Of a stretch of 64,000 bases of DNA, positions 1,999 to 61,083 are shown piece after piece. A model generated the notes under the pieces. It worked only from the letters and a program-made list of their open reading frames with translations, ran no database searches and had not been told where the DNA came from. The DNA is taken from assembly GCA_016700315.1 (NCBI GenBank), contig CP065013.1, positions 257,449-321,448 on the forward strand, written 5' to 3'. The translations under genes were made by a program, and so were the position numbers. The stretch is from Candidatus Saccharimonadota bacterium (GTDB lineage: Bacteria; Patescibacteriota; Saccharimonadia; Saccharimonadales; SZUA-47). Each line of letters begins with the position of its first letter. The first letter of the stretch is position 1.

Positions 1999-2076
1999 CT
2001 TATCCTTTCAATATGTATAACTTTCTTACTCAATTATACCAAAACCCCCGCTAAATCCCCTCATACCCTCATATGT

Positions 2077-2112
2077 ACGACATAAAAACCACGATCGTGG
2101 TTTTTATGTCGT
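2077..2112. repeat. 36-bp perfect palindrome ACGACATAAAAACCACGA|TCGTGGTTTTTATGTCGT (copy 1 of a 5-copy hairpin element), preceded by a C-rich tract and followed by a T run
   Basis: Read directly. The two 18-nt arms are exact reverse complements. Related copies lie at 20564-20599, 20786-20803, 23776-23814 and 24475-24514. Confidence 0.9.
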
Positions 2113-2175
2113 TTTTTTCAATCATAAGTACAGAAGGCATGTACTAGTTGCCGGCTTCCCTGATACTATACACTT

Positions 2176-3102
2176 ATGCTTTTTAGTAAACTAAAAACCG
2201 ACTTTCTGGAATATCTCGAGATTGAGCAGGGACGCTCACAAGCCACAATCAAAAACTACGACTTTTACTTGTCTAGGCTGATTGACTTTGAAGGTGATTT
2301 TGAGATAGAGCTGCTGGACGGCGAAATGGTAAGAAAGTGGCGGCTATGGCTAAACCGACTCGGTACTGCCACCAGTGACGAGCTGCAAAAAAACACTCAG
2401 AATTACCATCTGATAGCTCTAAGGGGATTTCTAAAATTCTGCGCCAAGCGTGACATAAAAGCTTTACCACCAGAGAAGATTGAGCTAGCAAAAGCCAAAC
2501 CAAAGCAGGTGACTTTTCTGAACGAAGAAGAACTGGAAAGACTTTTCAACATCCCAAAGCTAGACACCAAATCGGGCCTTCGTGACCGAGCTATCCTCGA
2601 GCTTCTTTACTCTAGCGGCTTGCGTGTTTCAGAGCTCACTGGGCTCAACCGCGACCACATCAACCTCAAGCGGCGCGAGTTTATGGTACGCGGCAAAGGG
2701 CAAAAGGACCGACCAATATTTATCAGCGAATCAGCCTCGTGGTGGCTTCAGAAGTACCTCGATAAGCGCGACGACAATGCACCTGCTCTTTTTATCCAGT
2801 ACAGCGGTAAATCAAGCAGTACAGACAACAGCGGCAGTTACCGCCGCCTCACTCCGCGCAGTGTCCAGCGCATGGTAAGCAAATCTGCCCTGCTCGCTGG
2901 CATAACAAAACACGTAAGTCCTCATACTCTCAGACATAGCTTTGCGACCGACATTCTAATGAACGGCGGCGACTTGCGTTCTGTCCAGGCCCTACTCGGC
3001 CACAGCAACATCTCTACCACCCAGATCTACACTCACGTCACTGATCCACACCTAAAAGCTGTCCACGACAAGTTCCACAAGGATATTAAGAGTAGCACTT
3101 GA
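2176..3102 (+). CDS. Tyrosine site-specific recombinase, XerC/XerD family
   Basis: C-terminal catalytic region HTLRHSFATDILMNGGDLRSVQALLGHSNISTTQIYTHV (R..HxxR..Y) and an N-terminal SAM-like domain. Confidence 0.9.
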   Translation: MLFSKLKTDFLEYLEIEQGRSQATIKNYDFYLSRLIDFEGDFEIELLDGEMVRKWRLWLNRLGTATSDELQKNTQNYHLIALRGFLKFCAKRDIKALPPEKIELAKAKPKQVTFLNEEELERLFNIPKLDTKSGLRDRAILELLYSSGLRVSELTGLNRDHINLKRREFMVRGKGQKDRPIFISESASWWLQKYLDKRDDNAPALFIQYSGKSSSTDNSGSYRRLTPRSVQRMVSKSALLAGITKHVSPHTLRHSFATDILMNGGDLRSVQALLGHSNISTTQIYTHVTDPHLKAVHDKFHKDIKSST

Positions 3103-3260: not shown

Positions 3261-3320
3261 TTTTACGCTTACTACCAACTACTTGCTACTATTTGTGGAT
3301 TAATACTTTATATATGACAC

Positions 3321-15655: not shown

Positions 15656-15683
15656 AAGCTATTTCATGCAAAGCCTGAAATTA

Positions 15684-16162
15684 GCTAGTCCCTAGACCCT
15701 TGTCGGTTGTCCCTAGTTATCAAGCTAGACTTTTAGAAAGCTTAGTCAGCATTTTTTGTATAATCTCTAGTTCTTCAATTATTGCGGCTATTCCAATTTT
15801 ATAAATGTCTTCAACCATTATTAGTTGGGTCTCTAGTTCTGCGGCAGAGCCCGATGCTATTCGCAAGAAATGTTTAAACTCTTTGTCATTCCTCCTCCTA
15901 TAGCCCTCTGCAATATTTGAAGGTATGCTCACGCTCGATCTCTTCATCTGAGAAGATAGTGCAAAGTCTTCTGTCTTTAGCAATTTTCTACATACTAAGT
16001 ACACTTCCTTGACTAGCGATCGTGATCTTTGCCACACTTTAAGATCATTAAAGTTTTTATCCATAAACCAAATATAGATTACAAAGTAGGGATAAACAAA
16101 AGCGCTACGCGCTATCCCGTCATAAACGGCTACGGACTAGGGACTACTAGCTAGGGTCTAGC
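15684..16162. mobile_element. Four-helix-bundle gene cassette bracketed by inverted heptamer arrays
   Basis: Left array GCTAGTCCCTAGACCCTTGTCGGTTGTCCCTAGTTA (15684-15719). Right array GGCTACGGACTAGGGACTACTAGCTAGGGTCTAGCC (16128-16162). They share reverse-complementary TAGTCCCTAG / CTAGACCC words. Confidence 0.65.
15720..16064 (-). CDS. Four-helix-bundle protein (TIGR02436 / '23S rRNA intervening-sequence protein' family)
   Basis: LKVWQRSRSLVKEVY...SQMKRSSVSIPSNIAEGY.R....F..FLRIASGSAAELETQL is the family signature. Confidence 0.88.
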   Translation of the reverse strand: MDKNFNDLKVWQRSRSLVKEVYLVCRKLLKTEDFALSSQMKRSSVSIPSNIAEGYRRRNDKEFKHFLRIASGSAAELETQLIMVEDIYKIGIAAIIEELEIIQKMLTKLSKSLA

Positions 16163-19300: not shown

Positions 19301-20173
19301 CTACATCTCTCTAGCATTTATTCTAGAAATCGCCCCAGCCCGCACAGGGTAAAGATTCGCATCGCTGTATGGGTCTACACTGATGTTTGCTTTGAGTCCG
19401 TTTTGGACAGGCGCTGGGTGAGCTTCGTCCCATTTAGCCCTAGCATAGGCATCTAATGCGCCTGCTTGGCTAGAATTTAGTTCATCTTCTATGCCCGTAA
19501 AGCGAAACATCTGGCCGTAGTTGGTGTCTATACCTTCTTTATCAGAAGCAGGTTCAATAAACTTTAGGTCGCAGCGCTTAGCAATCGCTACCGCTTCTGG
19601 GCTGCCATCTACCTTAACCACATCACCTTCTTTGTTTCGGTGGTACATCTTAGTAAACAAACTCTTAGCTAGCTCTGGTTCGCCCTGCTGTCCGGCACAT
19701 AGTTCGGCTACTCTTTCTTCAAAGGTTGGGGCTTGGGTGGTGGTAGTGGTGTTAGCGGAGTTCTTCTTGGTGGATTTAGTTGTGCCGCCAGAGCTATTGC
19801 CATTGTTGCTTCCGCCGCCGTTGCCGCCGTTATTACCACCGCCATTGTTACCACCGCCTTGTGGCTTAGTGGTTGTGGTGCGAGGTTTGGTGGTGGAGGT
19901 GCGAGGGCGGGTGGTGGAGGTGCAGACTAGTATAATACCGCCATACTCATCCGTCGTCTGCACACACCCCTCAACCCGTTTCTCTGGTTGTAGTACTTGT
20001 GGGGCTTCTTGAGCTATTGCTTGAGCAGTCGGCACACCGAGTATTGGCGTTAGCACCATACCGGCTCTCAATAACAAGCCTTTTGGTTTCTTAGATTTGC
20101 TAACTTCAGCCATAGGCATAGCACCCATCTCTGGGGATCGTGATAATTCGTTGCTTCTGTTGCTTGCACTCAT
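19301..20173 (-). CDS. Secreted protein with T/P/R and G/N low-complexity linker, unknown C-terminal domain
   Basis: Hydrophobic N-terminal segment, a TSTTRPRTSTTKPRTTTTKPQGGGNNGGGNNGGNGGGSNNG linker, and a good AAGGAG Shine-Dalgarno sequence upstream of the start. Confidence 0.65.
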   Translation of the reverse strand: MSASNRSNELSRSPEMGAMPMAEVSKSKKPKGLLLRAGMVLTPILGVPTAQAIAQEAPQVLQPEKRVEGCVQTTDEYGGIILVCTSTTRPRTSTTKPRTTTTKPQGGGNNGGGNNGGNGGGSNNGNSSGGTTKSTKKNSANTTTTTQAPTFEERVAELCAGQQGEPELAKSLFTKMYHRNKEGDVVKVDGSPEAVAIAKRCDLKFIEPASDKEGIDTNYGQMFRFTGIEDELNSSQAGALDAYARAKWDEAHPAPVQNGLKANISVDPYSDANLYPVRAGAISRINAREM

Positions 20174-20563
20174 GGCTTTCTGCTCCTTACCTGAGACTTG
20201 GGGGGGTTTCTGCTCAGATGATTAGTTAACTTAACTTTGGTCTATCGGTGCTAGCGGGCATTTTACTGTCCCTTGCTGACTGCTTGTACCGATCTTTTTT
20301 TGGCACGTTTTGAGCGTTCGGGCTCTAAGTTTCACAGTTAGTTTACTTTTTCCAGCAGCCTTGTTTACTTACTAAACAACCAGCTACCGAAATACTGACT
20401 AACCTTAACCTTAAAGCACACCCCAACTATACCACACCCCCACCCCCGTTGTCAATAGCCCGATTCTAGCAATTAGCGGGAACGGTAACCTTTACTTATG
20501 ATCTAATGCGCCCCTCGCCTTCCATTACCTCCCACCCAACACCCCTACAGCCAACCTTCATGT

Positions 20564-20599
20564 ACGACATGTTTGCCACGATCGTGGTTTTTATGTCGT
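20564..20599. repeat. Palindromic hairpin element copy 2 (left arm variant ACGACATGTTTGCCACGA)
   Basis: The right arm is identical to copy 1. The left arm has GTTTG in place of AAAAA, giving a U-U internal loop. Preceded by a C-rich tract. Confidence 0.85.
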
Positions 20600-20785
20600 C
20601 TTTTTATACTCACACCCCTGTAATTCACAAGGTAGACCAGGCTGCTTTCACGACTGTCACTACGACTAAGGCGCAGTCAAAACGCTAACCGTTATGCATT
20701 TATCCACCATTTTGCTTATGTTTTACCCAGACTTATCCATACCCCATCCCCACCCCACCAAACACCACTACACCTCCCTTCACGT

Positions 20786-20803
20786 ACGACATGTTTGCCA
20801 CGA
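20786..20803. repeat. Half-copy of the palindromic element (left arm only), preceded by C4 runs
   Basis: ACGACATGTTTGCCACGA is identical to the left arm of copy 2 and is followed by CCAAGCG instead of the right arm. Confidence 0.75.
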
Positions 20804-20852
20804 CCAAGCGTTTTCTTGTAGGCTTCTTGGCTTTCGTATATTTTTTTGTTCG

Positions 20853-21602
20853 CTATACACGTTTACTACCCTCGACTAAGCCGAGTGAAGACTTTTGACT
20901 CAGGAAGTCAGATGTCTCATTAACCGCACGAGCTAACGCTCTCTCGGGTTCAAGATTATTGATTAAACCACTTACATACTCTGCGAAAAATGTGTCGCCT
21001 GCTCCTATAGTATCTCTTAACCCTTCAACTACATTAGACGGTACGAAATATCTTTGTGAATTGTAAAATAGCTCTACTCCAAATATACCATCTGTGATTA
21101 TTAGCATTTTCTTTTTTTGTTCTTCGACAACAGTTTTTGGTATATAACGCATTTCTTCCCTAGTACCTTTTAAGCAAAATATGCTTTTAGAAACCTCTTC
21201 TGCTGCTAACCAATTTTTTTTCCGGCCAAAAAAATCTCCATCTCTTACATAACCTTGTATATCTAAGAAAACAAGACTGTTATGAAAGTCCACGCTAGAA
21301 AGATCCCACTCATCTGATACTGTCGATACTACCACCCATTTTGCTAGTTTAATGTCTATTGTCTTACGTATCTGTCTAGGTTTTTTTATTACCCGACCTT
21401 TTTCGCCATCTCTAGTGACCAGAATTTCTACCTCCAAACTCTTACAAAGAGCGTCGTCAAACGGCACGAAGTTTTTCGAGAAGACACGTTCTAAGAAATA
21501 TGCTGGACCTCGGTAACTATCTTCCAGTAAATCTCCAGACTCACTAATAACTATGTCCCTACTCCGAGTAGAAATAATATAGACTCTGTCACTCTTATTC
21601 AT
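20853..21602 (-). CDS. PfkB-family carbohydrate/nucleoside kinase-like protein (short)
   Basis: C-terminal IGAGDTFFAEYVSGL is the PfkB signature-2 (GAGD). At 249 aa it is shorter than ribokinases. Confidence 0.65.
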   Translation of the reverse strand: MNKSDRVYIISTRSRDIVISESGDLLEDSYRGPAYFLERVFSKNFVPFDDALCKSLEVEILVTRDGEKGRVIKKPRQIRKTIDIKLAKWVVVSTVSDEWDLSSVDFHNSLVFLDIQGYVRDGDFFGRKKNWLAAEEVSKSIFCLKGTREEMRYIPKTVVEEQKKKMLIITDGIFGVELFYNSQRYFVPSNVVEGLRDTIGAGDTFFAEYVSGLINNLEPERALARAVNETSDFLSQKSSLGLVEGSKRV

Positions 21603-22137
21603 ACTTATTTACATATTCCCGCGCTTTACTAAAAGCTATGCTCACTGCTTGCTCTGGTGACTCTGCTGCTAGTACCATCTGTCTTTGTCTGTTATCCATA
21701 AATTGTCCGGCCAGCTTGTCTGACCATCCACCCATCCCTGAGACCACTACCATAGGTATACCTGCTTGATAGGCAACCGTTAGTTCGTTCAATGTCCCGG
21801 ACCCACCACTGATAGCTATTACTACATCACACGATAAGGCGAGTACAAACTCTCTCCCACCTCCTCTTTCCATACCAGTAGGTATAATTACGTCAGCATC
21901 AGATTGTAATATCTTCTTACCCTTACCATAAGTTATTCCTACCGTCAGACCACCTTTTCTTTTTGCGCCTCGACAAGCGACTGTGGAGAGAGAGTCTGAA
22001 TCTTTCTCCGCACCAAAAACCAGTATTCCGCCTTCCTCAGCGATTAACTCTCCTACTCTTTCTGCAATCAGTTCAACTTCCTTAGTATAATTAAGGTCAG
22101 CCATTGAACCCATGACTCCTATCTGAAGTTTACGCAT
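21595..22137 (-). CDS. TIGR00725 / LOG (SLOG) family Rossmann protein
   Basis: IGVMGS N-terminus and AISGGSGTLNELTVAYQAGIPMVVV (PGGxGTxxE-like motif). Overlaps the PfkB-like gene by 8 nt. Confidence 0.7.
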   Translation of the reverse strand: MRKLQIGVMGSMADLNYTKEVELIAERVGELIAEEGGILVFGAEKDSDSLSTVACRGAKRKGGLTVGITYGKGKKILQSDADVIIPTGMERGGGREFVLALSCDVVIAISGGSGTLNELTVAYQAGIPMVVVSGMGGWSDKLAGQFMDNRQRQMVLAAESPEQAVSIAFSKAREYVNKYE

Positions 22138-22260
22138 AATTATTTACTCCTTTTAGTATAATATTTGCATTAATTAATGGTAGATACTCTACTTTTTTTC
22201 ATAGAGTTTTTGCCTCCCGATTTCTTTGTACTAAACTTTCATTATTCTTTCTCCATACTA

Positions 22261-22287
22261 AAAACACCAGCTCGCGCTGGTGTTTTA
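22261..22287. terminator. Hairpin AAAACACCAGC-TCGC-GCTGGTGTTTT, bidirectional terminator candidate
   Basis: An 11-bp stem flanked by A runs and T runs on both sides, in the 520-bp spacer between the PP2C and LOG-like genes. Confidence 0.5.
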
Positions 22288-22659
22288 TTAAATTTAGTTT
22301 TCTACATCAATACGCGAACTTTGAAACTAGCAACATGGTGATGCAAATGGGACTGATTAAGGGATCTTTTCAAAGCTAGCATACTCGCATGCTAGCTCTT
22401 AGGTACCGATTTGTCAACAACCTGCACCCTTACGAGATCTTTCATAACCCAAGTAAAATAGTTTTTGTATAACCATATCGTATAACTAGCTATTGTGTAG
22501 AAGTTACATACTTTTATCAGTATTCGGCCCTACAAAGGCCAGAGAACATACAACGACAAACACAAGATTCGATAAGAGAGTAGACTCATTAAACGAATCA
22601 ACAGGGAGAAGTCTGACAGCAAAGGTTTCTTGCTTCTACGAATTAGCCACAGTTATTTA

Positions 22660-23394
22660 TTATCCCCCTACCTTAAAAACTATTAAACTTGCGTTATCTT
22701 CCGCACCATTATCGAAAACCAGCTGCATTAATTTTTTTACTATAACTTCAGGTTTTAGGCTACATAATTTAGCTATTTCATCTTTCGAAATTACTGGCGT
22801 TTCGTATTTACACTCAGTAACACCATCTGTCATAAGCAACAGTACGTCTCCACGCTCAAGTTTTATTTGATCAAATTTAGTTGCAGATAATACTGGCATA
22901 CGCGCCCTAAGACCCAAAAATGAGAAAGCTCCGAGCCATGTCTTCTCTACTTGCTGTTCGTGAATTATATGCCCATTTCTAACTAAAAACGCTAAGCTGT
23001 CTCCGTATGAATGTAGAATTAGCCTATCCTGTTTTATTTCAGCTGCCACGTAACTGCTTTCAGATGTCCTATCTTTTTCTTCGTCCATTTCACAATGTCC
23101 AAACTTTTTATAAATCATTGATTGTATTTTTAATGCGAAAGATACGGCTTCTGCCCTATTACTAATAAGCTTGCGGGATGACGCCCACACCCGCATAACC
23201 AAGACTGCCGCTTCTTCGCCCCAATGGCTGTCAGCAACAACAAACTTAAGTGTAGAGCTACCAAACTTAGCAAACCCTATCCTATCTTCATTAACATCTT
23301 TTACCAGCCCTCTTGTTGTGGCCATACAAAAATTGTTAGCATAAAAAGTTTGTATTTTTTGCTTGTTATCCTTGACGGGCAAGACGACTTTCAT
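22660..23394 (-). CDS. PP2C-family Ser/Thr protein phosphatase
   Basis: Motifs VADSHWGEEAA, LLMTDGV and AEDNASLIVFKV match the metal-binding Asp motifs of PP2C/SpoIIE-type phosphatases. Confidence 0.75.
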   Translation of the reverse strand: MKVVLPVKDNKQKIQTFYANNFCMATTRGLVKDVNEDRIGFAKFGSSTLKFVVADSHWGEEAAVLVMRVWASSRKLISNRAEAVSFALKIQSMIYKKFGHCEMDEEKDRTSESSYVAAEIKQDRLILHSYGDSLAFLVRNGHIIHEQQVEKTWLGAFSFLGLRARMPVLSATKFDQIKLERGDVLLLMTDGVTECKYETPVISKDEIAKLCSLKPEVIVKKLMQLVFDNGAEDNASLIVFKVGG

Positions 23395-23543
23395 TTTTTA
23401 GATCTCTGCCGTTTCAATGCTAAGGCCGATTGTTTGTAAGATATTAGAAAAATGGCAGGTTGAAGGCACTTTTCCAAATCAACCGTTGGATAAGGCGCAG
23501 GCCCATCTGAAGAAGGATTTGACTCTAATATGATTGTTTCCAT
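23391..23543 (-). CDS. Candidate 50-aa ORF translationally coupled to the PP2C gene
   Basis: ATG at 23541-23543 is preceded by AGAGGAAAG. Its TGA stop overlaps the PP2C ATG (ATGA). Translated by hand as METIILESNPSSDGPAPYPTVDLEKCLQPAIFLISYKQSALALKRQRSKK. Below the ORF-track size cut-off. Confidence 0.35.
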   Translation of the reverse strand: METIILESNPSSDGPAPYPTVDLEKCLQPAIFLISYKQSALALKRQRSKK

Positions 23544-23775
23544 TGTTTACTTTCCTCTAATTTTATTAAAAATCTCCCCTGAGGGAGACTTCCGTTTTTT
23601 ATTCGTAATAATAATCTAGCGGGCGCCTCCTGAAAGCAAATATGCATAATAATATCCTTCTGAAGGGTTAAGAGTTCTTTTTACCATACCGATCGATTAT
23701 AGTACCAACTTTAAATACCGTCAAACCACCCCTTCCCCCCGCCCTACCAAAAAACCTGACCTCACAAGCAATAGC

Positions 23776-24514
23776 GTCAACATAAAAACCACGACCAAAG
23801 GTTTTTATGTTGACTTATAGGGGTAAGACTACTAACATGCGGGTATTATGGGCAGCGGGAATGCGAGAAAGATTAAGCCGAGCAGGCTCAGACCAAGGAG
23901 CCCTAGCAAGGAGCTTACTTCTAAAATAATTGAGTCCGTCTTGAGAGCTAGCGTTTTAGCTGGTTTTACCGCTTCTGCACTACTGATACCAAACTCTCCT
24001 ATCGCCCTAGAGAAACCAGTTAAATTCTTCCTAGATAAATTGGATCAGAAAGAAAAAGAGCGCCAAATCCGCCGCGTAATTACTGAGATGAAACGGCAAA
24101 AAATCGTCAAAGGAAGCTACGAACATGGTCTTGAGATAACCAATAAAGGACGCGAGCGACTAGCAAAACTAGATTACGACAAACTCGAGATATCTGAACC
24201 ACCTTCTTGGGATAAAAAATGGCGCATAGTACTCTTCGACATTCCTTTTAACAAAGATGAGAAACGTAGAGATTTGTCAGAGAAACTAAAACTAACTGGG
24301 TTTCAGTTACTCCAGCTTAGCGTATGGGTGCATCCGTACCCCTGCCGCGATGAACTAAACAAAATATGTGAGCACTTAGGTGTTGCTAAGTATGTTACCC
24401 TCATAGAAACTGCCCACATTGACCACGAAGAATTACTAAAAAAGCGCTTCAAAAATCTCAAATTACAGTAGTGTGTCAACATAAAAACCTTTGGTCGTGG
24501 TTTTTATGTCGTAC
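23776..24514. mobile_element. Single-gene cassette bounded by 35-bp perfect terminal inverted repeats, each itself a hairpin
   Basis: Left GTCAACATAAAAACC-ACGACCAAA-GGTTTTTATGTTGAC (23776-23814). Right GTCAACATAAAAACC-TTTGGTCGT-GGTTTTTATGTCGTAC (24475-24514). The loops are reverse complements, and 23780-23814 is the exact reverse complement of 24475-24509. Confidence 0.7.
23848..24471 (+). CDS. PaaX-like regulator (winged helix plus Cas2/VapD-fold C-terminal domain)
   Basis: WDKKWRIVLFDIPFNKDEKRRDLSEKLKLTGFQLLQLSVWVHP matches the PaaX C-terminal pattern (W..W.lv.f.ipe..R..R..L...GF..l..svWv.P). A wHTH-like region lies upstream. Confidence 0.65.
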   Translation: MGSGNARKIKPSRLRPRSPSKELTSKIIESVLRASVLAGFTASALLIPNSPIALEKPVKFFLDKLDQKEKERQIRRVITEMKRQKIVKGSYEHGLEITNKGRERLAKLDYDKLEISEPPSWDKKWRIVLFDIPFNKDEKRRDLSEKLKLTGFQLLQLSVWVHPYPCRDELNKICEHLGVAKYVTLIETAHIDHEELLKKRFKNLKLQ

Positions 24515-24588
24515 ATTAGCTGTGTGAGCTAGAAGTACCCAATGGTTCTAGGGATGCTGCTTACGAAATTTATAACTTTGAAGATAGC

Positions 24589-25215
24589 CTACAAAAGTGT
24601 CGACCAGTAGTACCAGAACTTGTACAGAATTAGCCATATTACAGCTGCGTAGGTTACGAAAAGTACCAGTGCATGTTCTCGCCTAACCCAAGCGGCAGCT
24701 CGGGCCAAGCTACCTTTTACGGCTATATGCCCTTCGCTAATGTTATACAGCGTCGTGTAAAAAAACAGCGGGATCATTACCGCCCAGGTTGTCATACACC
24801 ATGGGCACAAAGCGCCAATCACAAAAATACTGTGGTACATCAGGTTGAGAACAAAGACAAGCCCGGCCAGCACGCCGAACTGTAGCGCTACCCAAAACCA
24901 TCGCTGTTTCGGTCGCCCAGTTAGAAGCATCATCACCCCGATGGCTATGAGTCCTGCAAAGGCTGGGATGCCAAAAACTGGATTTGGAATACCAAAAACA
25001 TGCGAGCTAGAAGACTTCATGACCGAACCGCAAGAAATAATCGGGTTAAGATCACACCCCAGCTGAGCGGTCGGGTTTTTAAGTAGATGCACCTCCTCAA
25101 CCATCAGAACTACCGCTGCCAGCAGTGCAACCGCACTAAAAACAATCAGCAAGTAAGGATAAATGCGCTTTAGATCCCAAGCGCTACGGTTCAAAAACTC
25201 ATTGATCCTTTTCAT
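24589..25215 (-). CDS. Vitamin K epoxide reductase (VKOR) family membrane protein
   Basis: Loop Cys pair CDLNPIISC, CPWC redox motif and 4-5 TM helices. Start placed at ATG 25213-25215; the tracked ORF extends to a TTG at 25296. Confidence 0.75.
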   Translation of the reverse strand: MKRINEFLNRSAWDLKRIYPYLLIVFSAVALLAAVVLMVEEVHLLKNPTAQLGCDLNPIISCGSVMKSSSSHVFGIPNPVFGIPAFAGLIAIGVMMLLTGRPKQRWFWVALQFGVLAGLVFVLNLMYHSIFVIGALCPWCMTTWAVMIPLFFYTTLYNISEGHIAVKGSLARAAAWVRREHALVLFVTYAAVIWLILYKFWYYWSTLL

Positions 25216-25311
25216 CGCCTCATTATACCTCACACTTGATACAAACTCTTTATTCGCAGGTGCTGTGACAGCTAAGCCATACAAAAAAGCGCGCAACGTT
25301 AAATTCGCAAA

Positions 25312-25716
25312 TTAGATTTTAGCAACAGGTAGTTCGGGCACTCTGCCAAAATCTGAATCTAGAGAAAGCAATAAACAATCGTACTCGAGTGTCAGAGCCG
25401 CGATCCACATATCGTTGGTATTGATTGGTGTGCCCTGCTGCTTAAGTTTTTTGAATATAGCGGCGAAGAGTTTGGTGGTTTTGTCACTGATCGTAACTGT
25501 ATTAACATTCGGCATGTCTAGAAACTTCTGGAGGAGTGCTTCGTTTTCTTTCGGCCTGTTTCCAAGTGCGAAGCCAGCTCTTAGCTCGCCAACGACAACA
25601 AGCGGCACTAAAACTTGCGAATCTGGCCGAAAATATTCACGCAAGCGGCCATCGCCTCTGTTGAATGCCGAATAAGCACTAGTATCAATCAGCAGTTTCA
25701 CTTTGCTCACTGCCAT
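25312..25716 (-). CDS. vapC: PIN-domain toxin VapC
   Basis: LLIDTSAYSAF N-terminal acidic motif with distal D residues, 134 aa, and a 10-nt overlap with the upstream antitoxin. Confidence 0.85.
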   Translation of the reverse strand: MAVSKVKLLIDTSAYSAFNRGDGRLREYFRPDSQVLVPLVVVGELRAGFALGNRPKENEALLQKFLDMPNVNTVTISDKTTKLFAAIFKKLKQQGTPINTNDMWIAALTLEYDCLLLSLDSDFGRVPELPVAKI

Positions 25717-25958
25717 AACTTTTTATCTATTTTAGACAAATCAGCAATCGCTTCGTCAAATGACCCATCAAGTGTGTTAGCTCCAAAAAGCCAATCGAAC
25801 CCAGTCTCAGCTTGAATCTGCGTAGTTCCGAAAGTTTGCATAGTTAACAAATCTACTACTGTCTGGTTAAAAGATTTTCCAGTTCTTTGAGAGCGCTTTT
25901 TTATAACCATGTCAACCGCTGGTGGTATATTCCTTATAGTGTATTGAATTTTACTCAT
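25707..25958 (-). CDS. vapB: VapB-type antitoxin (RHH/FitA-like)
   Basis: MSKIQYTIRNIPPAVDMVIKKRSQRTGKSFNQTVVDLL is a ribbon-helix-helix type N-terminus. Start moved to ATG 25956-25958. Confidence 0.75.
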   Translation of the reverse strand: MSKIQYTIRNIPPAVDMVIKKRSQRTGKSFNQTVVDLLTMQTFGTTQIQAETGFDWLFGANTLDGSFDEAIADLSKIDKKLWQ

Positions 25959-26026
25959 GTATACATTGTATGCAGTATATACACTTACGTCAATCCGCTG
26001 GATCAATACTGATGACTTACACGGCT

Positions 26027-26082
26027 CTTGATACTTTATCCCTGATACTTGATACTAGTTATTATGAGTTTACAGATTGGGA
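26027..26082 (+). repeat. 56-bp direct repeat, copy A: decayed duplicate of the ychF promoter-proximal region and first 6 codons
   Basis: CTTGATACTTTATCCCTGATACTTGATACTAGTTATTATGAGTTTACAGATTGGGA differs from copy B (28110-28165) at 3 of 56 positions. Confidence 0.92.
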
Positions 26083-26201
26083 CAGATACTGCGCAGCCCA
26101 ATTACCTTTTGTGCTAAGACTAACTATGCTACCGACGGATAGAGGTGATCGTAGCTATTCCAACGAACGTACTGTTAAGACAAATGAAGAGTTACAGACC
26201 T

Positions 26202-28088
26202 CTAGCTCTTAGGCTTACTGCGTAAAGCTTTCGTGATAGTACCGAAATTCTTTGCTAGGTCGTAATCACTCCGCCCAGCAACTATTGCCTCATAAATAGC
26301 GTCATCACCAGCAAGCTTTTTAAGCCTGTTATTGAGCTGTCTCATAATTGTTTTAGGATCTTTGTCATGTACACCATTCTGACTTGCGAAGTGACTAAGC
26401 TCTTGAGCGTCAGCAGGACGCTCTGACGGGTTAAAGAGCGGTAGTGTTTCTGGACGTACTTCACGCTGTCGTGCACGAAATGCACCACTTTGCTCGGAGA
26501 GCTCTATGACTCGTTGCTCACCAACTGCGTCTAGCGCTAAAATCTGTAGTTCGTAATCACTAAAAATTAGATTTTCGGCACTTCTCCAGCCAGGTATAGG
26601 TACTGTCCTTTTACCGTCGTAGTCAGCAATTATTACCTTAACACGATCTTGCTCAAAACCACCGCTTGCTTTGTCTAAAGCAAAAAGTGTAGCTACTTCT
26701 ACAGGATCCAGCTTTCCTCTCAGTTGATAAGCGATACTTAGAATATCCTCTGGCAAATGATAATCTTCAGGCATTTCTGGCAATTGTGCGGCTGCCTTGA
26801 GATATTCAGTTGTAGCGTTTTCACGGACACCTTCACGCCCAGACTTACTGAGCCGGGGATTTACAGAGGTACTTCTGATTAACCTTTGAACGTAGTCGGT
26901 CAGTCCAACAAATGCTTTTGTCTTTACCCTACTCGTTTCGAACAATTGCATAAGCTGTCCGACAGCTCGGACTTCTGTTCGGTCTAAATGTTCAATTGCT
27001 GAACCTGCGTCCTCACCTAGTGCCCACGTTGCATCAATAATGGTAGACACTGACGATCCATCTTTGTCTACAGTTACAAATGTATTCCAAGCGTGTCCAC
27101 TTCCTTCACCGGTGCTCGTACTAAAACCGTCTGCTCGTGAGTCAGCATAACCCGCACCGTCTTTACCTCCGCCGTAAACAGCATAAGTATTATTTAGCAT
27201 ACTTAGTTCGGTTTGTGTTGCCTTGAGAGCTTCAAATACAGCCTTTACGTTTGAGGCTACGTTTCTGCAAACGCCGTTACCCTTCCAATTAGGGTCTTTC
27301 CTGCTAGCTATGCCTTCTCTTAGTAACTCAGAAGTGGTTGACTGGTCAGCTCTTGATAAATCTTTTAAGCCAATGTCCTCGTAGGTGTACCGTGAGACAC
27401 TTTGAACAAACGCAGCACTAAGCTTTACCGCTTGTTCGGGAGTCAAGTGACTTAATGAACGAATCTTTAGACTCTCTACTAACTGTTGACCGCTTTTGTC
27501 GTTTTGGAGGTAGTGAGCAAGGACAGTACGCAACTCCGTTTGCCAGCCTTCTTCCTCTACTGTATTGCGATAGGTGTGGTCGCCATTGCCACAGTCAGTT
27601 AGTGACGCTTCCAAGTAATCAGGCACAGGGTACGTTTCGCGGCTTGGTGCTACTTTAGGATTGTAGTGCTCAAGGGTCGTAAAACTAGCAAATGCTGTGT
27701 CTGTCATCTCAATGTGAGCTAAAGAACGTGTATGAACCGTCTCCAATGTACGCATTCGTTCCAGGCTATCGTGCAACGCTAACTCAACGTCCTTACCAGC
27801 ACCTACTACTTCTTTTTTTGTTCTACCTTCCTGTGAACCTGAGCCAATAATAATTCTGTGCTCACCCTCAGGGGTCCTGCCTATGAACTGTTCATCAGCG
27901 CGATAAAAATGCCCTGCCGATACTACAACACCTGATAAACCAACACGTCCAATAGCAGGTATGGCACCACTTTGTTCGGTTGGTAATTGATCTGGGCTTA
28001 TTAGAGGCTTTTGTTCTAGTACTGCGGTCATAGTTTTTATTTTTGCTTTACTCTCTGTTATCTTATCAAATAACTTGACAAATGTCAA
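26202..28088 (-). CDS. Transglutaminase-like (Cys-His-Asp) domain protein, 628 aa
   Basis: NGVCRNVASNVKAVFEAL (nucleophile Cys), GSGHAWNTFVTV (His) and IIDATW (Asp) occur in the order and spacing of the transglutaminase-core cysteine protease fold. No signal peptide seen. Confidence 0.65.
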   Translation of the reverse strand: MTFVKLFDKITESKAKIKTMTAVLEQKPLISPDQLPTEQSGAIPAIGRVGLSGVVVSAGHFYRADEQFIGRTPEGEHRIIIGSGSQEGRTKKEVVGAGKDVELALHDSLERMRTLETVHTRSLAHIEMTDTAFASFTTLEHYNPKVAPSRETYPVPDYLEASLTDCGNGDHTYRNTVEEEGWQTELRTVLAHYLQNDKSGQQLVESLKIRSLSHLTPEQAVKLSAAFVQSVSRYTYEDIGLKDLSRADQSTTSELLREGIASRKDPNWKGNGVCRNVASNVKAVFEALKATQTELSMLNNTYAVYGGGKDGAGYADSRADGFSTSTGEGSGHAWNTFVTVDKDGSSVSTIIDATWALGEDAGSAIEHLDRTEVRAVGQLMQLFETSRVKTKAFVGLTDYVQRLIRSTSVNPRLSKSGREGVRENATTEYLKAAAQLPEMPEDYHLPEDILSIAYQLRGKLDPVEVATLFALDKASGGFEQDRVKVIIADYDGKRTVPIPGWRSAENLIFSDYELQILALDAVGEQRVIELSEQSGAFRARQREVRPETLPLFNPSERPADAQELSHFASQNGVHDKDPKTIMRQLNNRLKKLAGDDAIYEAIVAGRSDYDLAKNFGTITKALRSKPKS

Positions 28089-28109
28089 TATGCTTATGTA
28101 TTAAACATA

Positions 28110-28165
28110 CTTGATACTTTATCCCTCATACTTGATACTAGTTATTATGAGTTTATCGATTGGGA
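28110..28165 (+). repeat. 56-bp direct repeat, copy B: functional ychF 5' region
   Basis: See copy A. Contains the heptamer array GATACTT TATCCCT CATACTT GATACTA and the ychF ATG at 28147. Confidence 0.92.
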
Positions 28166-30470: not shown

Positions 30471-31244
30471 TTAACGCAAGCTTTTTAGCATATAAAATCG
30501 CTCGACGTTTCCTTTGCTACCGGCAAGTCCAGAATCAGCTTTGTCAACTATTTTGAACAAATTTTGTACCCAGCTTTCGAAGTCGTGAATAATTTCGCGA
30601 CGAACTTTGCTATTTTTGATTACACCCCTGTTAATTTGCTCCTTGCCTGCTTCAAACTGAGGCTTGAGCATAGCTATGATTAATGTTTTGTTATTAACGA
30701 ATAAAGAGATGTGAGGTAGTATTTTTCGCATCGAAATAAAGCTCACGTCAATCACTACTATGTCTGGTACTTCGGAGAGTACTACTCTTCGTTCCTCGTT
30801 CTTCGTTCCTCGTTCTATTTGGCTACTTTGTAGCCAAATCTCACGAATATCAGTCTTTTCGTGCAGTTCAATTTTGGGATTTCCTAACAGTGTTGGGTGA
30901 AGTTGATCCGTGCCAACATCAACTGCAACAACTTTACTAGCACCATTTTGCAGTGCAAAATCCGTGAAGCCTCCCGTGCTACTGCCCACGTCCAAAACGA
31001 CTTTATTTGTAAAATCTAGCCCTAGCTCTCTCGCTACAGAAGCCAGCTTCTCGCCTGCTCGTGATACGTACTTTCCTGCTGTAGCTGAAACTACAATTTT
31101 GTCACTAGCTGAAACCTCGAAAGCCGGTTTTGTAATAACATTACCGTTAACTCGCACCGTGCCGCGCTTAATCAAATCCTCGGCCCTAGACCGCGACTGA
31201 GTCTTGCCTGACAAAAATAAAACTTGATCAAGCCGCCGCTTCAT
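30471..31244 (-). CDS. tlyA: TlyA-family 16S/23S rRNA (cytidine-2'-O)-methyltransferase
   Basis: N-terminal S4 domain (RLDQVLFLSGKTQSRSRAEDLIKRGTVRVNG) and FtsJ-type SAM motif VLDVGSSTGGFTD. Confidence 0.88.
   Translation of the reverse strand: MKRRLDQVLFLSGKTQSRSRAEDLIKRGTVRVNGNVITKPAFEVSASDKIVVSATAGKYVSRAGEKLASVARELGLDFTNKVVLDVGSSTGGFTDFALQNGASKVVAVDVGTDQLHPTLLGNPKIELHEKTDIREIWLQSSQIERGTKNEERRVVLSEVPDIVVIDVSFISMRKILPHISLFVNNKTLIIAMLKPQFEAGKEQINRGVIKNSKVRREIIHDFESWVQNLFKIVDKADSGLAGSKGNVERFYMLKSLR
30787..30839. repeat. Intragenic module inside tlyA: heptamer array (CTTCGTT CCTCGTT)x2 plus adjacent 9-bp-stem hairpin ATTTGGCTA-CTTTG-TAGCCAAAT
   Basis: Read directly. Translated in frame as WLQSSQIERGTKNEERRVV. 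Confidence 0.9.
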
Positions 31245-34880: not shown

Positions 34881-34910
34881 TCGTCACTCCTTTCTTCTGC
34901 GAAGAAACGA

Positions 34911-34988
34911 GTTAGTAGTTAGTAGTTGGTAGTTGGTAGTTAGTAGCCTCATGAGCTACCATCTACCATCTACCTTCTACCTTCTACC
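34911..34988 (-). promoter_or_regulatory. Long imperfect hairpin in the rpsF leader built from two inverted heptamer arrays
   Basis: GTTAGTAGTTAGTAGTTGGTAGTTGGTAGTTAGTAGC (34911-47), a 7-nt loop, then GCTACCATCTACCATCTACCTTCTACCTTCTACC (34955-88). Hand pairing gives runs of 5-7 bp separated by mismatches roughly once per heptamer unit. Confidence 0.6.
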
Positions 34989-43675: not shown

Positions 43676-44383
43676 CTAGATATCTTCAATAGTTTTAGCA
43701 TCTTTTACTTCATAGCCTCCGATTTTCGTACGTCGAAGCTCAAGACAGTAAGCACCCGTACCAAGTTCTTTGCCAATATCTTCCGCAAGGGTACGAATGT
43801 ATGTGCCGCTGGAGACATGGGCACGTACTTTTATTTCTGGCCAGACGTACTCAAGCAGCTCCAGGCTATAAATCGTTACTTGGCGTGGTTTCAGTTCGAC
43901 TTTTTTGCCCGCCCTAGCAAGCTCATAAGCCTTTTTGCCGTTAACCTTGATAGCCGAATACTGCGGCGGCACCTGCGTGATCTCACCAACAAACTTAGCT
44001 AGCGCCTTTTGTACCTCTTCAGTAGATGGTAGATGGTAGTTAGTAGTTGGAGTGGCTTCTCTTCGTTCATCGTTCAGCATCCCTCGTTCTGTGATTTCCC
44101 CTTCCGGATCACCGGTCGTCGAGACAGCCCCAAGTCGAAAAGTCGCCTCATAGACCTTATCTTGCTTCATAAACTCGTCCTGACGCTTCGTGGCACTGCC
44201 AATCAGGATTATCAGCAGCCCCGTAGCAAAAGGATCGAGCGTGCCACTGTGGCCTACTTTTAGTTTCTGTTTACCGTTTACTGAGGACTGAGGACTATTT
44301 TTTCGTAAATCAGAGCGGATTTTGGCCACCACATCAAAACTAGTCCACCCCGATGGTTTATCTATCAGAATTACTTGATCCAT
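43676..44383 (-). CDS. truB: tRNA pseudouridine(55) synthase
   Basis: KVGHSGTLDPFATGLLIILIG catalytic Asp motif, and QVPPQYSAIKVNGKKAYELAR. Confidence 0.92.
   Translation of the reverse strand: MDQVILIDKPSGWTSFDVVAKIRSDLRKNSPQSSVNGKQKLKVGHSGTLDPFATGLLIILIGSATKRQDEFMKQDKVYEATFRLGAVSTTGDPEGEITERGMLNDERREATPTTNYHLPSTEEVQKALAKFVGEITQVPPQYSAIKVNGKKAYELARAGKKVELKPRQVTIYSLELLEYVWPEIKVRAHVSSGTYIRTLAEDIGKELGTGAYCLELRRTKIGGYEVKDAKTIEDI
44022..44088. repeat. Intragenic heptamer arrays inside truB: GTAGATG GTAGATG GTAGTTA GTAGTTG (44022-49) and CTTCGTT CATCGTT CAGCATC CCTCGTT (44061-88)
   Basis: Read directly. Translated in frame as ERGMLNDERREATPTTNYHLPST. The E. coli TruB sequence as I recall it is about 14 residues shorter here. 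Confidence 0.85.
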
Positions 44384-58374: not shown

Positions 58375-61083
58375 TCATAGCTCCCCCCATGTTTTACCGG
58401 TGGATATGTCTACACGCAGTTTTACGCCCAGCTCTGGATAAATATTTTCCATAGTCTGCTTCATCATTTTGCCAACCCGCTCAGCATCAGCTTCGGCACA
58501 TTCAACCAAAATACTGTCATGTATCTGCAATATCTGTCTCGGCTCTTCCTCGTTCCTCGTTCCTCGTTCCTCGTTCCAGTGTCTAAATTGGCTTTCTAAT
58601 TTAGACATTGCCATCTTGGTTATATCAGCAGCGCCTCCCTGAATTGGCATATTGATTGCGGCCCGCAAAGCTGCCTCACGTACGACAAAATTGCTGCTCC
58701 GAGCATCCGGCGTTGGGCGGCGACGTCCGAGCGGCGTCTCCACAAAACCTTTGTTTTTGGCTTGGTCACGAAAACGCTCCATCATTGCCTTCAGTTTGGG
58801 GCGCACCTCGAAGTATTTATCGATAAACTTTTTGGAATCGGCGTAGCTCATGCCCGTTCCTTCACTGAGTCCGTGAACACCTTGCCCATACAAAATACCG
58901 AAATTAACAGCTTTGGCCGCGTAGCGCATCTCTTTGCTGACTTCTTCGGGCTTGACACCTTGAACCAAAGCGGCCGTCTCGATATGAATGTCTCGATCAG
59001 AGTTAAACGACTCAATCATTGCTTGATCACCGCTCAGTGCCGCGGCAATGCGAAGCTCAAACTGACTGTAGTCGGCACTCACCAATACATTGCCAGGCTC
59101 GGCGATAAAGCCAGTTCTGATCTCTCGACCAATTTCGGTGCGGATAGGAATGTTCTGCAAGTTGGGATCGTTGCTACTAAGCCGGCCAGTTGCTGCGACC
59201 GTCAGCGCCAGTGTTGTATGTATACGATTGTTCTCATCTACCTGCTCTGGCAGCGTATCTACGTAGGTACTTTTGAGCTTTGTGTACTCACGATATTTCT
59301 CGATATCGTTGATGATCGGGTGAAGGTCTTTTAGTTTAGCGAGTACGTTACTGGCTGTGCTGAAGTGGCCAGCCTTCCCTTTCTTGCTTGCGATTGTAGG
59401 CAAGTTTAGCTTCACAAACAAAATATCACTCAGCTGGCTAGGACTTGAGATATTAAACTCTTGGTCGGCATAGCCATAAATTGTTTGTTCAATGTCACTA
59501 ATTTGATCTGTTAACTTGTCAGATAAAACCTTGAAAAAGCTTGGCTCAATCTTCACCCCAGTACGCTCAATTCGAGCTAAGACTGGTATCACTGGCCAGT
59601 CCACTTGCTCGGCCATTTTGATCAAACTTGTAACCTCGCTCATTTGCTCACCCTGTCGCTCAGCAAGCCCCCGGATCACAGCGCAGATTTCTGGTAGCTT
59701 AATTAGCGCTTCATCATCATCAATATTGTCGAGCTCACCAGCGTAGTTTAGATCCTCGCTCGCAAGCGCCGTAAGCGAAAAATCTCGCCTCAGAGAATTA
59801 ACAATAAATGCGCCAACTTGTGTGTCGTGGCTTACCTGCGGCAAGTTTTCTATCCCAAGCTCGAGTAAAATTTGAAAGATATTCTTTAAATCGTGCCCGG
59901 TAACGGCTTTGCCGTTTAGTAGTTGGTCGATGGTAGATGGTAGATGGGAATTAGCTACTGATTTTCTTAAATCAAAAATATAGCAATTTGTTTTGTCAGA
60001 TAGCGCCAAAACAGTTGGCTCGTGACCGTGCTTACCACTGCTGCGAGCAAAAATTACTACATCCCCTTCAAGCTGCAGCGATGACACTGCGGAGCTCTCC
60101 TGAACGTAGACAGGTGTCGGGGTTTTGAGATCGAGGATTGCCGCACTTATGTTTGACGAAAGGTCATTTGTCGATTCTGCAACTGCTACTTTGGACGAAT
60201 CACTACGCATTCCTTGTGGCAAGTTGCGCAGCAGGCTCCTGAACTCTAGGCGCTTTAGTATGCTTGCCAGCTCATTCGTATCTAGCTTATTTATGTCCAT
60301 TTGTTCAAGGTCCAGCTCGATTGGCGCATCTGCGTAAAGTCGAGCAATTTCTTTACTCATGTAGGCCGAATCTCGCCCCGCTTCAAGCTTTTTCTGTACT
60401 GCGCCCTTGGTGAGAGCAACATTCTCGTAAACACCATCGAGAGTTTTGTATTGTTTAAGTAGTTCAACCGCTGTTTTTTCACCAATGCCAGGAACACCGG
60501 GAATGTTGTCCGACGAATCGCCTTTTAGAGCTTTTAAGTCCAGAAATTGCTCAGGCTCGAGGCCGTATTTATCACGAAATTGTTCTGGCCGATAAAGCTC
60601 GATATTTGTTAGTCCTTTTTTGAGCGCATAGACATGGGTGTTCTCGCTAATGCACTGCAGTGCATCAAGATCACTGGTGATTAGCATTGTCTCTAACCCG
60701 GCGGCATCAGCTTTTTTAGCCAGGCCACACATAATATCGTCTGCCTCGTAATCATCGAGTTCGTATAGCGGCCAATTTAGTGCTCTTAGCAGCTCGTGAA
60801 GAATAGGAATTTGTACATAAAAGTCTGGCGGTGCCGGCTTTCGTCCTGCCTTGTAGTCTGGGTAGACGGCTAGTCGTTTTCGGATATTGGTTTTTGGTTT
60901 ATCCCAAGCTACACAAACATAATCTGGTTTGAGCCGCTTAATCAGCTCCAGCGCCATTGCTGCGAAGCCATAAACTCCCCCTGTTGGCGTCCCGTCGGCG
61001 GTCGAAAGCCCCGGCATCGCGTAATAGCCACGGTAAAAGACTGACTTTCCGTCGATAATCGCAAGTTTTTTTCTACTCTCCAT
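58375..61083 (-). CDS. polA: DNA polymerase I
   Basis: 5'-nuclease domain, DYSQFELRIAA (motif A), KAVNFGILYGQG (motif B) and QIHDSILVE (motif C). Confidence 0.94.
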   Translation of the reverse strand: MESRKKLAIIDGKSVFYRGYYAMPGLSTADGTPTGGVYGFAAMALELIKRLKPDYVCVAWDKPKTNIRKRLAVYPDYKAGRKPAPPDFYVQIPILHELLRALNWPLYELDDYEADDIMCGLAKKADAAGLETMLITSDLDALQCISENTHVYALKKGLTNIELYRPEQFRDKYGLEPEQFLDLKALKGDSSDNIPGVPGIGEKTAVELLKQYKTLDGVYENVALTKGAVQKKLEAGRDSAYMSKEIARLYADAPIELDLEQMDINKLDTNELASILKRLEFRSLLRNLPQGMRSDSSKVAVAESTNDLSSNISAAILDLKTPTPVYVQESSAVSSLQLEGDVVIFARSSGKHGHEPTVLALSDKTNCYIFDLRKSVANSHLPSTIDQLLNGKAVTGHDLKNIFQILLELGIENLPQVSHDTQVGAFIVNSLRRDFSLTALASEDLNYAGELDNIDDDEALIKLPEICAVIRGLAERQGEQMSEVTSLIKMAEQVDWPVIPVLARIERTGVKIEPSFFKVLSDKLTDQISDIEQTIYGYADQEFNISSPSQLSDILFVKLNLPTIASKKGKAGHFSTASNVLAKLKDLHPIINDIEKYREYTKLKSTYVDTLPEQVDENNRIHTTLALTVAATGRLSSNDPNLQNIPIRTEIGREIRTGFIAEPGNVLVSADYSQFELRIAAALSGDQAMIESFNSDRDIHIETAALVQGVKPEEVSKEMRYAAKAVNFGILYGQGVHGLSEGTGMSYADSKKFIDKYFEVRPKLKAMMERFRDQAKNKGFVETPLGRRRPTPDARSSNFVVREAALRAAINMPIQGGAADITKMAMSKLESQFRHWNEERGTRNEEEPRQILQIHDSILVECAEADAERVGKMMKQTMENIYPELGVKLRVDISTGKTWGEL
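58548..58607. repeat. Intragenic module inside polA: perfect (CCTCGTT)x4 plus adjacent 10-bp-stem hairpin TGTCTAAATT-GGCTTTCT-AATTTAGACA
   Basis: Read directly. Translated in frame as KLESQFRHWNEERGTRNEEEPRQ, just upstream of motif C. Confidence 0.92.
59917..59951. repeat. Second intragenic heptamer array in polA: TAGTAGT TGGTCGA TGGTAGA TGGTAGA TGGGAAT
   Basis: Read directly. Same unit family as the truB and rpsF-leader arrays. Translated as ANSHLPSTIDQLL. Confidence 0.85.

Follow-up and report, generated by a model that had tools for sequence, protein, structure and literature searches.

Five copies of a long palindrome, which we number PAL1 to PAL5 by position, lie in a 64,000-nucleotide stretch of DNA from a Candidatus Saccharimonadota bacterium (GenBank assembly GCA_016700315.1, contig CP065013.1, positions 257,449 to 321,448), hereafter the window. 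From the sequence we predict that these palindromes are probably the operators of a short PaaX-like regulator whose gene (23848–24471, + strand) is bracketed by PAL4 and PAL5. A preliminary description of PAL1 and its copies had proposed three candidates, namely an element resembling repetitive extragenic palindromes (REP) or miniature inverted-repeat transposable elements (MITE), a protein operator, and a recombination site of a new type; of these, the comparative data favour the operator.

As the preliminary description stated, and as can be read directly in the letters of the window, PAL1 (2077–2112) is a perfect 36-bp palindrome, ACGACATAAAAACCACGATCGTGGTTTTTATGTCGT. It parses as ACGACAT-AAAAA-CCACGA|TCGTGG-TTTTT-ATGTCGT, with ACGACAT and ATGTCGT as outer boxes, 5 bp of A/T-rich spacer per arm and the GC-rich palindrome CCACGA|TCGTGG in the middle, and is followed by a T run that ends at 2118 (the seven Ts counted earlier include the last T of the palindrome; other assemblies have eight). 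The 30-nt core of PAL1 found no match in 100 shuffles, so that its occurrence is beyond chance. PAL2 (20564–20599) is imperfect, the AAAAA of its left arm being replaced by GTTTG. PAL3 (20786–20823), previously taken for a half copy at 20786–20803, proved to be a full, degenerate copy that reads ACGACATGTTTGCC-ACGACCAAG-CGTTTTCTTGTAGGC; its right arm CGTTTTCTTGTAGGC fits the consensus at 10 of 15 positions and is part of a strain-variable island. PAL4 (23776–23814) reads GTCAACATAAAAACC-ACGACCAAA-GGTTTTTATGTTGAC, and PAL5 (24475–24514) is a reversed copy between the convergent paaX-like and VKOR genes. None of the five has a strand assigned to it; relative to one another, PAL5 is opposite in orientation to PAL1–4. 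Together, PAL4 and PAL5 form an inverted repeat of 35 nt, 100% complementary and 660 nt apart, that encloses one gene. The distance between the arms is 8 bp in PAL1 and PAL2 and 9 bp in PAL4 and PAL5.

The count of five related copies was borne out by a profile search of the window, which was built from the full-length copies and returned exactly these sites, with no sixth at E ≤ 10; half-site searches agree. No more copies were present in about 30 kb of additional flank from the same species, and four of the five lie within 4 kb of the paaX-like gene. Five other assemblies of the species carry an identical PAL1. A metagenome scan with a specific pattern yielded two matches only, in a collection evidently without the Joint Genome Institute (JGI) samples that hold this species, and the same kind of scan of viral contigs yielded none. 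The 36-bp core is identical in metagenome contigs L126 and L127, whose flanks are unrelated and in each of which it lies upstream of a gene, past a C/A-rich tract. We discarded a generic pattern for the genome collection, CATAAAAACC-N6-11-GGTTTTTATG, as too unspecific: it retrieved 120 hairpins of the ordinary terminator-like sort, spread over all phyla, and the extended motif was in none of them.

The gene between PAL4 and PAL5, single-copy within the window, encodes a 207-residue protein with a Pfam PaaX_M match (E=5.5e-21). Among Protein Data Bank folds, its AlphaFold2 model (mean pLDDT, the predicted local distance difference test, 70.6) matches E. coli PaaX 8a39 best (E=3.8e-5), and Rv0674 and Cas2 proteins come next. 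The protein consists of a winged helix and a Cas2-like PaaX_M dimerisation domain and has no C-terminal PaaX domain. Given its size (207 residues, against 316 in the solved E. coli PaaX chain 8a39) and a Pfam assignment to PaaX_M only, it is therefore a PaaX-like short form and not PaaX itself. The family of such short proteins is widespread, with 766 clusters at 50% identity (E ≤ 1e-30), and we found no description of it for the Candidate Phyla Radiation (CPR)/Patescibacteria in the literature searched.

Comparison across lineages links the protein to the palindromes. In nine lineages, the window's own and eight more whose proteins are 31–54% identical, a paaX-like orthologue is accompanied by lineage-specific palindromes, which stand on both sides of the gene in eight of the nine; the exception is L080, where the downstream palindrome alone is visible. 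(The close relative L128, GCA_029781765.1, whose protein is 96% identical to the window's, is counted with the window as one lineage.) The build is common to all, in that a few A/T-rich letters separate an outer box from a GC-rich palindrome at the core, and the letters differ by lineage, although a CGATCG centre is common to four of them. L130 (54% identity) has AACAT-ATTTA-CCACA-CC-TGTGG-TATTT-ATGTT upstream, after a C-rich tract, and AACAT-TTTTC-CCACA-CC-TGTGG-ATTTT-ATGT downstream. L139 (48%) has CTATTACC-AAAAC-GCTCGA|TCGAGT-AAAAT-GGTAATAG, with a variant downstream; L149 (45%) has AAATAACTCTGACGG|CCGTCAGAGTTATTT, which leads through a G-rich tract to alaS; and L132 (43%) has TTAAATAAATYTGAYAGCTGTCAGATTTATTTAA, then a G-rich tract, then TGTAATAAT and a PIF1 gene. 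The sites of L150 (31%), GAGCAATAAAAA-TGCGGTCGYC-TTTTTATTGCTC, of the Parcubacteria member L151 (about 38% locally), ATACGGTGAGAAWACGATCGTWTTCTCACCGTAT, and of L091, GTGAA-TTTT-CGCAT|ATGCG-N4-TTCACG, occur on both sides, and that of L080 (Uhrbacteria), CCACATCCTACATAAAAACCGCGATCGCGGTTTTTATGTAGGATGTGG, which includes ACATAAAAACCGCGATCGCGGTTTTTATGT, directly follows the stop codon. The last two lineages, L080 and L091, were met by accident among the matches of the generic hairpin scan, and both carry the paaX-like gene. In L139, L149, L132 and L151 the upstream palindrome, as read by eye, contains or abuts the -35/-10 elements of the regulator promoter. Since the sequence of the palindrome tracks the PaaX-like protein across lineages, and not the Xer recombinase that is encoded beside PAL1, the protein-operator reading is favoured.

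In L149 (2197–4098) and L151 (1385–3112), both of Parcubacteria type, the paaX-like gene and its downstream palindrome lie directly upstream of alaS. This order is kept between proteins that share no more than 33% identity, which argues for vertical inheritance rather than a mobile unit, and alaS may be a conserved target.

The arms of these sites behave like duplex DNA elements rather than RNA stems. Their spacers are often non-complementary: in PAL2, at the two sites of L130, at the two of L139 and in L091, one and the same strand has T-rich spacers in both arms or A-rich ones in both. Folding compared with shuffled sequences gave z-scores of about 0 for PAL3 and for the downstream sites of L130 and L139, and very strong ones for PAL1 and PAL4. 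The boxes are thus conserved in sequence and the pairing is not, as is typical of sites that proteins bind on double-stranded DNA. A simple terminator role had already been doubted for PAL1 because of its location between divergent gene starts, and this doubt is reinforced: PAL1 and PAL4 both lie between divergent starts, only PAL5 sits between convergent genes, and PAL4, PAL5 and the copies in relatives have no T run. Tested for a stem followed by a T run, PAL1 qualifies (16 pairs and then T7, scoring on the + strand only) and PAL2 does so weakly; PAL4, PAL5, L126, L127 and the distant copies do not.

In the window, the palindromes are part of a recurrent module in which palindrome, G-rich tract, promoter and gene succeed one another, pointing away from the palindrome. 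The preliminary description had noticed that four of the five copies follow a C-rich tract, and indeed G-poor C-tracts (+ strand; G-rich on the - strand) stand directly 5' of PAL1 (2038–2074), PAL2 (20509–20562), PAL3 (20724–20787) and PAL4 (23711–23766); PAL5 has none. The C-tract was also considered as a general promoter feature and rejected as such: all non-coding C-rich tracts of the window are in palindrome-bearing intergenic regions. They hold quadruplex-capable runs and Shine-Dalgarno-like words. The coupling is imperfect, in that weaker C-runs also stand before ndk in a sister species that has no palindrome there, and that a G-rich tract accompanies the palindrome in the window and in L130, L132 and L149, which are Saccharibacteria-like, but not in L139, L151 or L091. 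On the - strand, the tract of PAL1, which lies between the palindrome and the ndk promoter, runs directly into TGGTATAAT, a promoter-like site (-10 hexamer at 2038–2033) before ndk (1486–1998, - strand; Pfam NDK, E=8.5e-40). Another, strong promoter-like site, TTGACA-18-TATAGT (20455–20426, - strand; 11 of 12 matches, a TG before the -10 and a G-run in the spacer), points towards a gene of 290 codons (19301–20173). A third, TTGACG-17-TATAAT (23696–23724, - strand; 11 of 12 matches), lies just past the G-rich tract of PAL4 and would serve the operon of the island. The nearest predicted start is 50–160 nt downstream of PAL1–3. With its right arm, PAL4 overlaps the -35 element of the predicted paaX-like promoter TTGACT-17-TAACAT (23810–23838, + strand). 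T runs occur after PAL1 and, as CTTTTT, after PAL2, and PAL3 is followed by a second hairpin with T7.

The anatomy of the sites, their link to the gene, their co-variation across lineages and the breakpoints described below are observations; what the operator model adds to them by inference is that the protein binds the sites, whether it represses or activates, and what the G-rich tract does. Each palindrome would be bound by one dimer or by a pair of dimers. E. coli PaaX recognises TGATTC-N27-GAATCA and keeps its own promoter repressed through steric hindrance (PMC9493321); likewise, protein at PAL4 would block RNA polymerase at the -35 element of its own gene and so cause autorepression, as E. 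coli PaaX does at Px. PAL5, just past the stop codon, would be a second site, by which the gene could be enclosed in a repression loop, and it may double as a terminator hairpin. Through PAL1–4, upstream of G-rich tract and promoter, the protein might control a small regulon made up of ndk, the gene for the 290-residue secreted protein and the PfkB/SLOG/PP2C operon. With PAL1 some 53–88 nt upstream of the likely transcription start of ndk, its effect there would be exerted from upstream (activation, looping or insulation) and not by occlusion. Finally, recombination and insertion in the population may also end preferentially at the long palindromes or at the protein that occupies them.

Several points weigh against this model. 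The case for operators is one of association throughout. PAL1–3 overlap no recognisable core promoter, PAL5 and the downstream site of L139 lie between convergent genes, where a promoter is not expected, and the difference in arm spacing (8 bp in PAL1/2, 9 bp in PAL4/5) would be awkward for a rigid dimer. A perfect palindrome of 36–48 bp also exceeds most operators in length, and the model does not explain the G/C tract, the T runs after PAL1 and PAL2 or the three breakpoints that fall on palindromes.

These breakpoints emerged from strain comparisons. PAL3 and PAL4 bound a strain-variable island of about 3 kb (20808–23798, - strand), with PfkB-like, SLOG and SpoIIE/PP2C-like genes, a promoter and a G-rich tract, whose GC content (0.37–0.40 in the bins of 21001–23000) is lower than the 0.41–0.51 found elsewhere in the window, four other low-GC bins excepted. 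The island is absent from the close relative L128. In place of PAL3, island and PAL4, L128 has one hybrid site composed of ACGACATGTTTGCC (the left arm of PAL3), ACGACCAAA and GGTTTTTATGTTGAC (the right arm of PAL4), with the junction inside the shared CCACGACCAA, within which the ends of the island are ambiguous; the same junction is found in the independent contig L129. Identity between the window and L128 is 100% over about 2.5 kb left of PAL2, falls exactly at the right arm of PAL2 to 57% over the next 140 nt, and is then 88–98%. In L121 and L122, synteny breaks exactly at the right edge of PAL3 (20823). Left arms, centres and right arms recur in mosaic combinations across sites and strains; the centre of PAL5, for instance, is ACGATCGT in L128 and TTTGGTCGT in the window. 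The suggestion that the copies might mark synteny breakpoints was thus upheld, with three structural breakpoints exactly at palindromes. Three exact coincidences exceed chance; the palindromes are therefore either true recombination sites or fragile, or protein-bound, end points of homologous and illegitimate recombination, and the second reading is favoured by the higher divergence of everything right of PAL2. That the palindromes are hot spots of structural variation, as a secondary property, is well supported.

Some further observations concern the same junctions. At 9717–9745 of L128, the right arm of PAL2 passes directly into a partial left arm (ATGTCG|ACATGTCAGCC, 11 of 14 positions matching ACGACATGTTTGCC), after which come about 125 nt that have no counterpart in the window. 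Left of the island, the JGI metagenome contigs L121 (2927–4856) and L122 (1508–3437) carry, in place of the window's DNA, a truncated DDE_Tnp_1 insertion sequence, which adjoins PAL3 at its right edge, an IS30-like one (HTH_38 and rve) and unrelated genes. Two contigs from a single JGI sample (3300045332) diverge 27 nt right of PAL1 (L135, 1–140) and 31 nt left of PAL4 (L123, 1–48); they may be chimeric or real, the flank in L135 is very GC-rich for this genome, and we do not rely on either. Several public assemblies end inside PAL1 or PAL5 (L124, L125, L136, L137 and L145), probably an assembler artefact caused by perfect palindromes, which matters for the binning of these genomes. A second segment of about 2.9 kb (25247–28132), also absent from L128, holds a PIN-domain toxin gene (25312–25716), a small open reading frame (ORF) upstream of it (25707–26006) and the gene of a 628-residue protein (26202–28088). 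In this segment or at its right edge lie direct repeats of 56 nt (26027–26082 and 28110–28165), 95% identical, with TGATACT promoter-like words.

A role as recombination sites or fragile palindromes, with a host Xer-type crossover in the central ACGACCAA or ACGATCGT, would be compatible with the operator reading, yet we consider it unlikely as the explanation of the element. It would have the island enter as a circle with its own site, in the style of Xer-exploiting elements, possibly with the PaaX-like protein as an accessory factor, and the junction of the circular island, right end to left end, would read TCAACATAAAAACC-ACGACCAA-GCGTTTTCTTGTAGGC. The hybrid site of L128 with its counterpart in L129, the breaks at the right arm of PAL2 and the edge of PAL3, the mosaic of arms and centres, a low-GC island without a recombinase of its own and the parsing of PAL1 as 11 + 8 + 11 bp all fit such a scheme. 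However, the palindromes differ completely between genomes in which Xer would be 75–80% identical and instead follow the PaaX-like protein, PAL1 is missing next to an Xer that is 88% identical, and the centre of PAL4 and PAL5 is 9 bp long. The 88–98% identity right of PAL2 would equally fit a single homologous import from a divergent donor that ended by microhomology at the palindrome, Saccharibacteria being naturally transformable (PMC10633639), and the further breakpoints in L123 and L135 are the possibly chimeric ones. An inversion switch between PAL4 and PAL5 was rejected, as the enclosed gene has the same orientation in seven of seven assemblies, a result that also speaks against site-specific recombination there. 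A more elaborate version, in which promoter-bearing cassettes, the PAL3–PAL4 island being one, are site-specifically inserted, excised and swapped in Saccharibacteria populations, with the PaaX-like protein to recognise or shape the site and a host recombinase (the single Xer, for example) to exchange the strands, appears more doubtful still; if true, it would differ both from integrons and from dif-exploiting elements. Apart from the housekeeping Xer, 18 kb away, there is no recombinase nearby, and a Pfam scan of selected ORFs detected no IntI.

That Xer (2176–3102, + strand; Pfam Phage_integrase) is the tyrosine recombinase whose gene adjoins PAL1. All 8000 scored candidates matched it at E ≤ 1e-20, mostly with 75–80% identity among the 120 matches listed, several of which are annotated as Candidatus Saccharibacteria. 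Judged by this conservation, it is the housekeeping recombinase of Saccharibacteria and a neighbour, not a partner, of PAL1. The divergent ndk–xer arrangement with an identical PAL1 recurs in three other assemblies of the species; in a sister species (L147/L148), whose Xer is 88% identical, the two genes are arranged in the same way and the spacer holds no palindrome. The connection to Xer seen earlier in the ACATAA and TTATGT words and in the gene start 64 bp away consequently does not hold, since the palindrome is absent beside so similar an Xer and tracks the PaaX-like protein; its proximity to xer is incidental. These same features, together with the 11-8-11 parsing, are what a dif-type site of the adjacent Xer for the resolution of chromosome dimers would have to build on, and we regard that reading as exceedingly improbable. 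It was rejected on copy number (five in 22 kb, not one), on the cumulative GC skew, which is near-monotonic across the window without a switch, on the sister species and on the conservation of Xer, which the palindrome does not share across Saccharibacteria. Set against the two arms of roughly 11 bp and the centre of 6–8 bp of a dif site, the arm geometry gives a mixed picture: PAL1 can be drawn as 11 + 8 + 11, but the centre of PAL4 and PAL5 has 9 bp, and the CATAA and TTATG words are outermost, not innermost. As a separate observation, xer may be leaderless, with an extended -10 element, TGATACTAT, that stops 7 nt before its ATG at 2176 (2157–2178). The word TCCCTGATACT from the same upstream region is found again at 26039 (family D20).

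Two further readings seem quite unlikely to us. Small RNAs such as RoxS and RsaE are C-rich, and by analogy the module could be transcribed from the + strand, as a 5' leader or small RNA in which C-rich stretches resembling anti-Shine-Dalgarno sequences (CACCTCCC, ACCTCCC, CCCTCAT) pair with ribosome-binding sites and the palindrome is the intrinsic terminator. The + strand terminator of PAL1, the CTTTTT after PAL2, the second hairpin with T7 after PAL3, and C-tracts that are G-poor and contain CCUCC-like words agree with this, as does the fact that, read in the orientation of PAL1–4, the mismatched positions of PAL2 and PAL5 oppose G to T and not A to C. Yet no + strand promoter precedes any C-tract, and strong - strand promoters adjoin them; T runs are lacking at PAL4, PAL5, L126, L127 and the distant copies, and that of PAL2 is lost in L128; several copies are unable to form a hairpin; and a small RNA would fail to account for the bracketing of the paaX-like gene in nine lineages. 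In an Rfam search of the window, only a tRNA reached its gathering score, and permissive settings returned nothing for 20100–24700 and, at PAL1, only sub-threshold matches driven by the hairpin (for example NrrF, 28 bits against a gathering score of 60). The REP/MITE-like element of the preliminary description fares no better. Such a mobile palindrome, moving with or without the C-tract and with the paaX-like gene as a passenger or as part of a composite element, would be consistent with several intergenic copies, some at variable junctions, with the presence of PAL1 in this species and its absence from the orthologous spacer of the sister species, with the identical 36-bp core between unrelated flanks and with the perfect 35-nt inverted repeats of PAL4 and PAL5. 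Against this stand the small number of copies (five in 64 kb, of which four surround a single gene; none in the extra flank of about 30 kb or in viral contigs, and two matches in the metagenome scan) and the lack of target-site duplications, the flanks in L126 and L127 extending the palindrome without direct repeats. Moreover, the window has one paaX-like gene only, the synteny of such genes with alaS survives deep divergence, and the Pfam scan of selected ORFs revealed no transposase beside the copies in the window.

The window contains other repeats that do not involve the palindromes. A CCCTAG-rich repeat of about 41 nt occurs at 64–104, 15676–15716 and 16134–16161, in direct and inverted orientation (families D15 and I10), with one copy near a gene to which the annotation of L128 assigns a 23S rRNA intervening-sequence protein. 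Tracts of short tandem repeats of the TAGTAGTTGGTAG type are present in both orientations at 34907–34987, 44021–44060, 59918–59947 and 3268–3291 (families D4, I3, I9 and I16), as are TCGTTC-type tracts at 30786–30829, 44060–44089 and 58547–58576 (family D2). A tRNA-Arg (CCT) at 229–303 is the sole RNA gene found.

The CPR/Patescibacteria have tiny genomes, and hardly anything is understood of how their genes are regulated. The operator reading predicts which DNA motif is cognate to the protein and an autoregulatory layout that is conserved in nine lineages; its candidate regulon comprises ndk, a secreted glycine-rich protein with its operon, and the PP2C-phosphatase/SLOG/PfkB operon. This regulon is open to experiment, as Saccharibacteria can be manipulated genetically by natural transformation (PMC10633639). 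The coincidence of palindromes and breakpoints bears, in addition, on how these genomes change and on why their assemblies break. The bracketing of a paaX-like gene by its putative operators in the CPR is absent from the literature we searched; its kind, a transcription factor with its operator, is known.

Compared with known systems, the palindromes share some traits with rho-independent terminators, namely the long stem and T run of PAL1 and the location of PAL5 between convergent genes, but differ from them in that most copies lack the T run, several cannot fold, and PAL1 and PAL4 lie between divergent starts. REP sequences, bacterial interspersed mosaic elements (BIME) and MITEs are likewise short intergenic palindromes in several copies, some of which mark variable junctions; unlike them, the element described here has a very low copy number, clusters at one regulator gene, shows no target duplication and co-varies with a DNA-binding protein across phyla. 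Integrative elements such as CTX phage and the gonococcal genetic island exploit Xer at dif, and here, too, an island without a recombinase lies between two related, near-palindromic sites with a common core in a host that has Xer. The sites, however, are multi-copy, are not conserved with Xer, do not lie at a skew switch and have arms unlike those of dif. Integron cassettes and their attC sites resemble PAL2–4 in being imperfect palindromes in one orientation that delimit strain-variable segments, but IntI, attI and a common promoter are missing, each segment has a promoter of its own and the array is tiny. The closest parallel is PaaX of E. coli and Pseudomonas. It belongs to the same fold family (a winged helix followed by a Cas2-like middle domain), recognises a dyad with distant outer boxes, here ACGACAT-N22-ATGTCGT, and has one site that overlaps the regulator's own promoter, as do PAL4 and the sites of L139, L149, L132 and L151, though not PAL1–3. 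The 207-residue protein departs from E. coli PaaX in lacking the C-terminal domain that responds to phenylacetyl-CoA, and no paa genes are nearby; its predicted sites have an additional inner palindrome with a CGATCG centre and a different spacing, are coupled to G-rich tracts, bracket the gene in a pair and occur in CPR bacteria.

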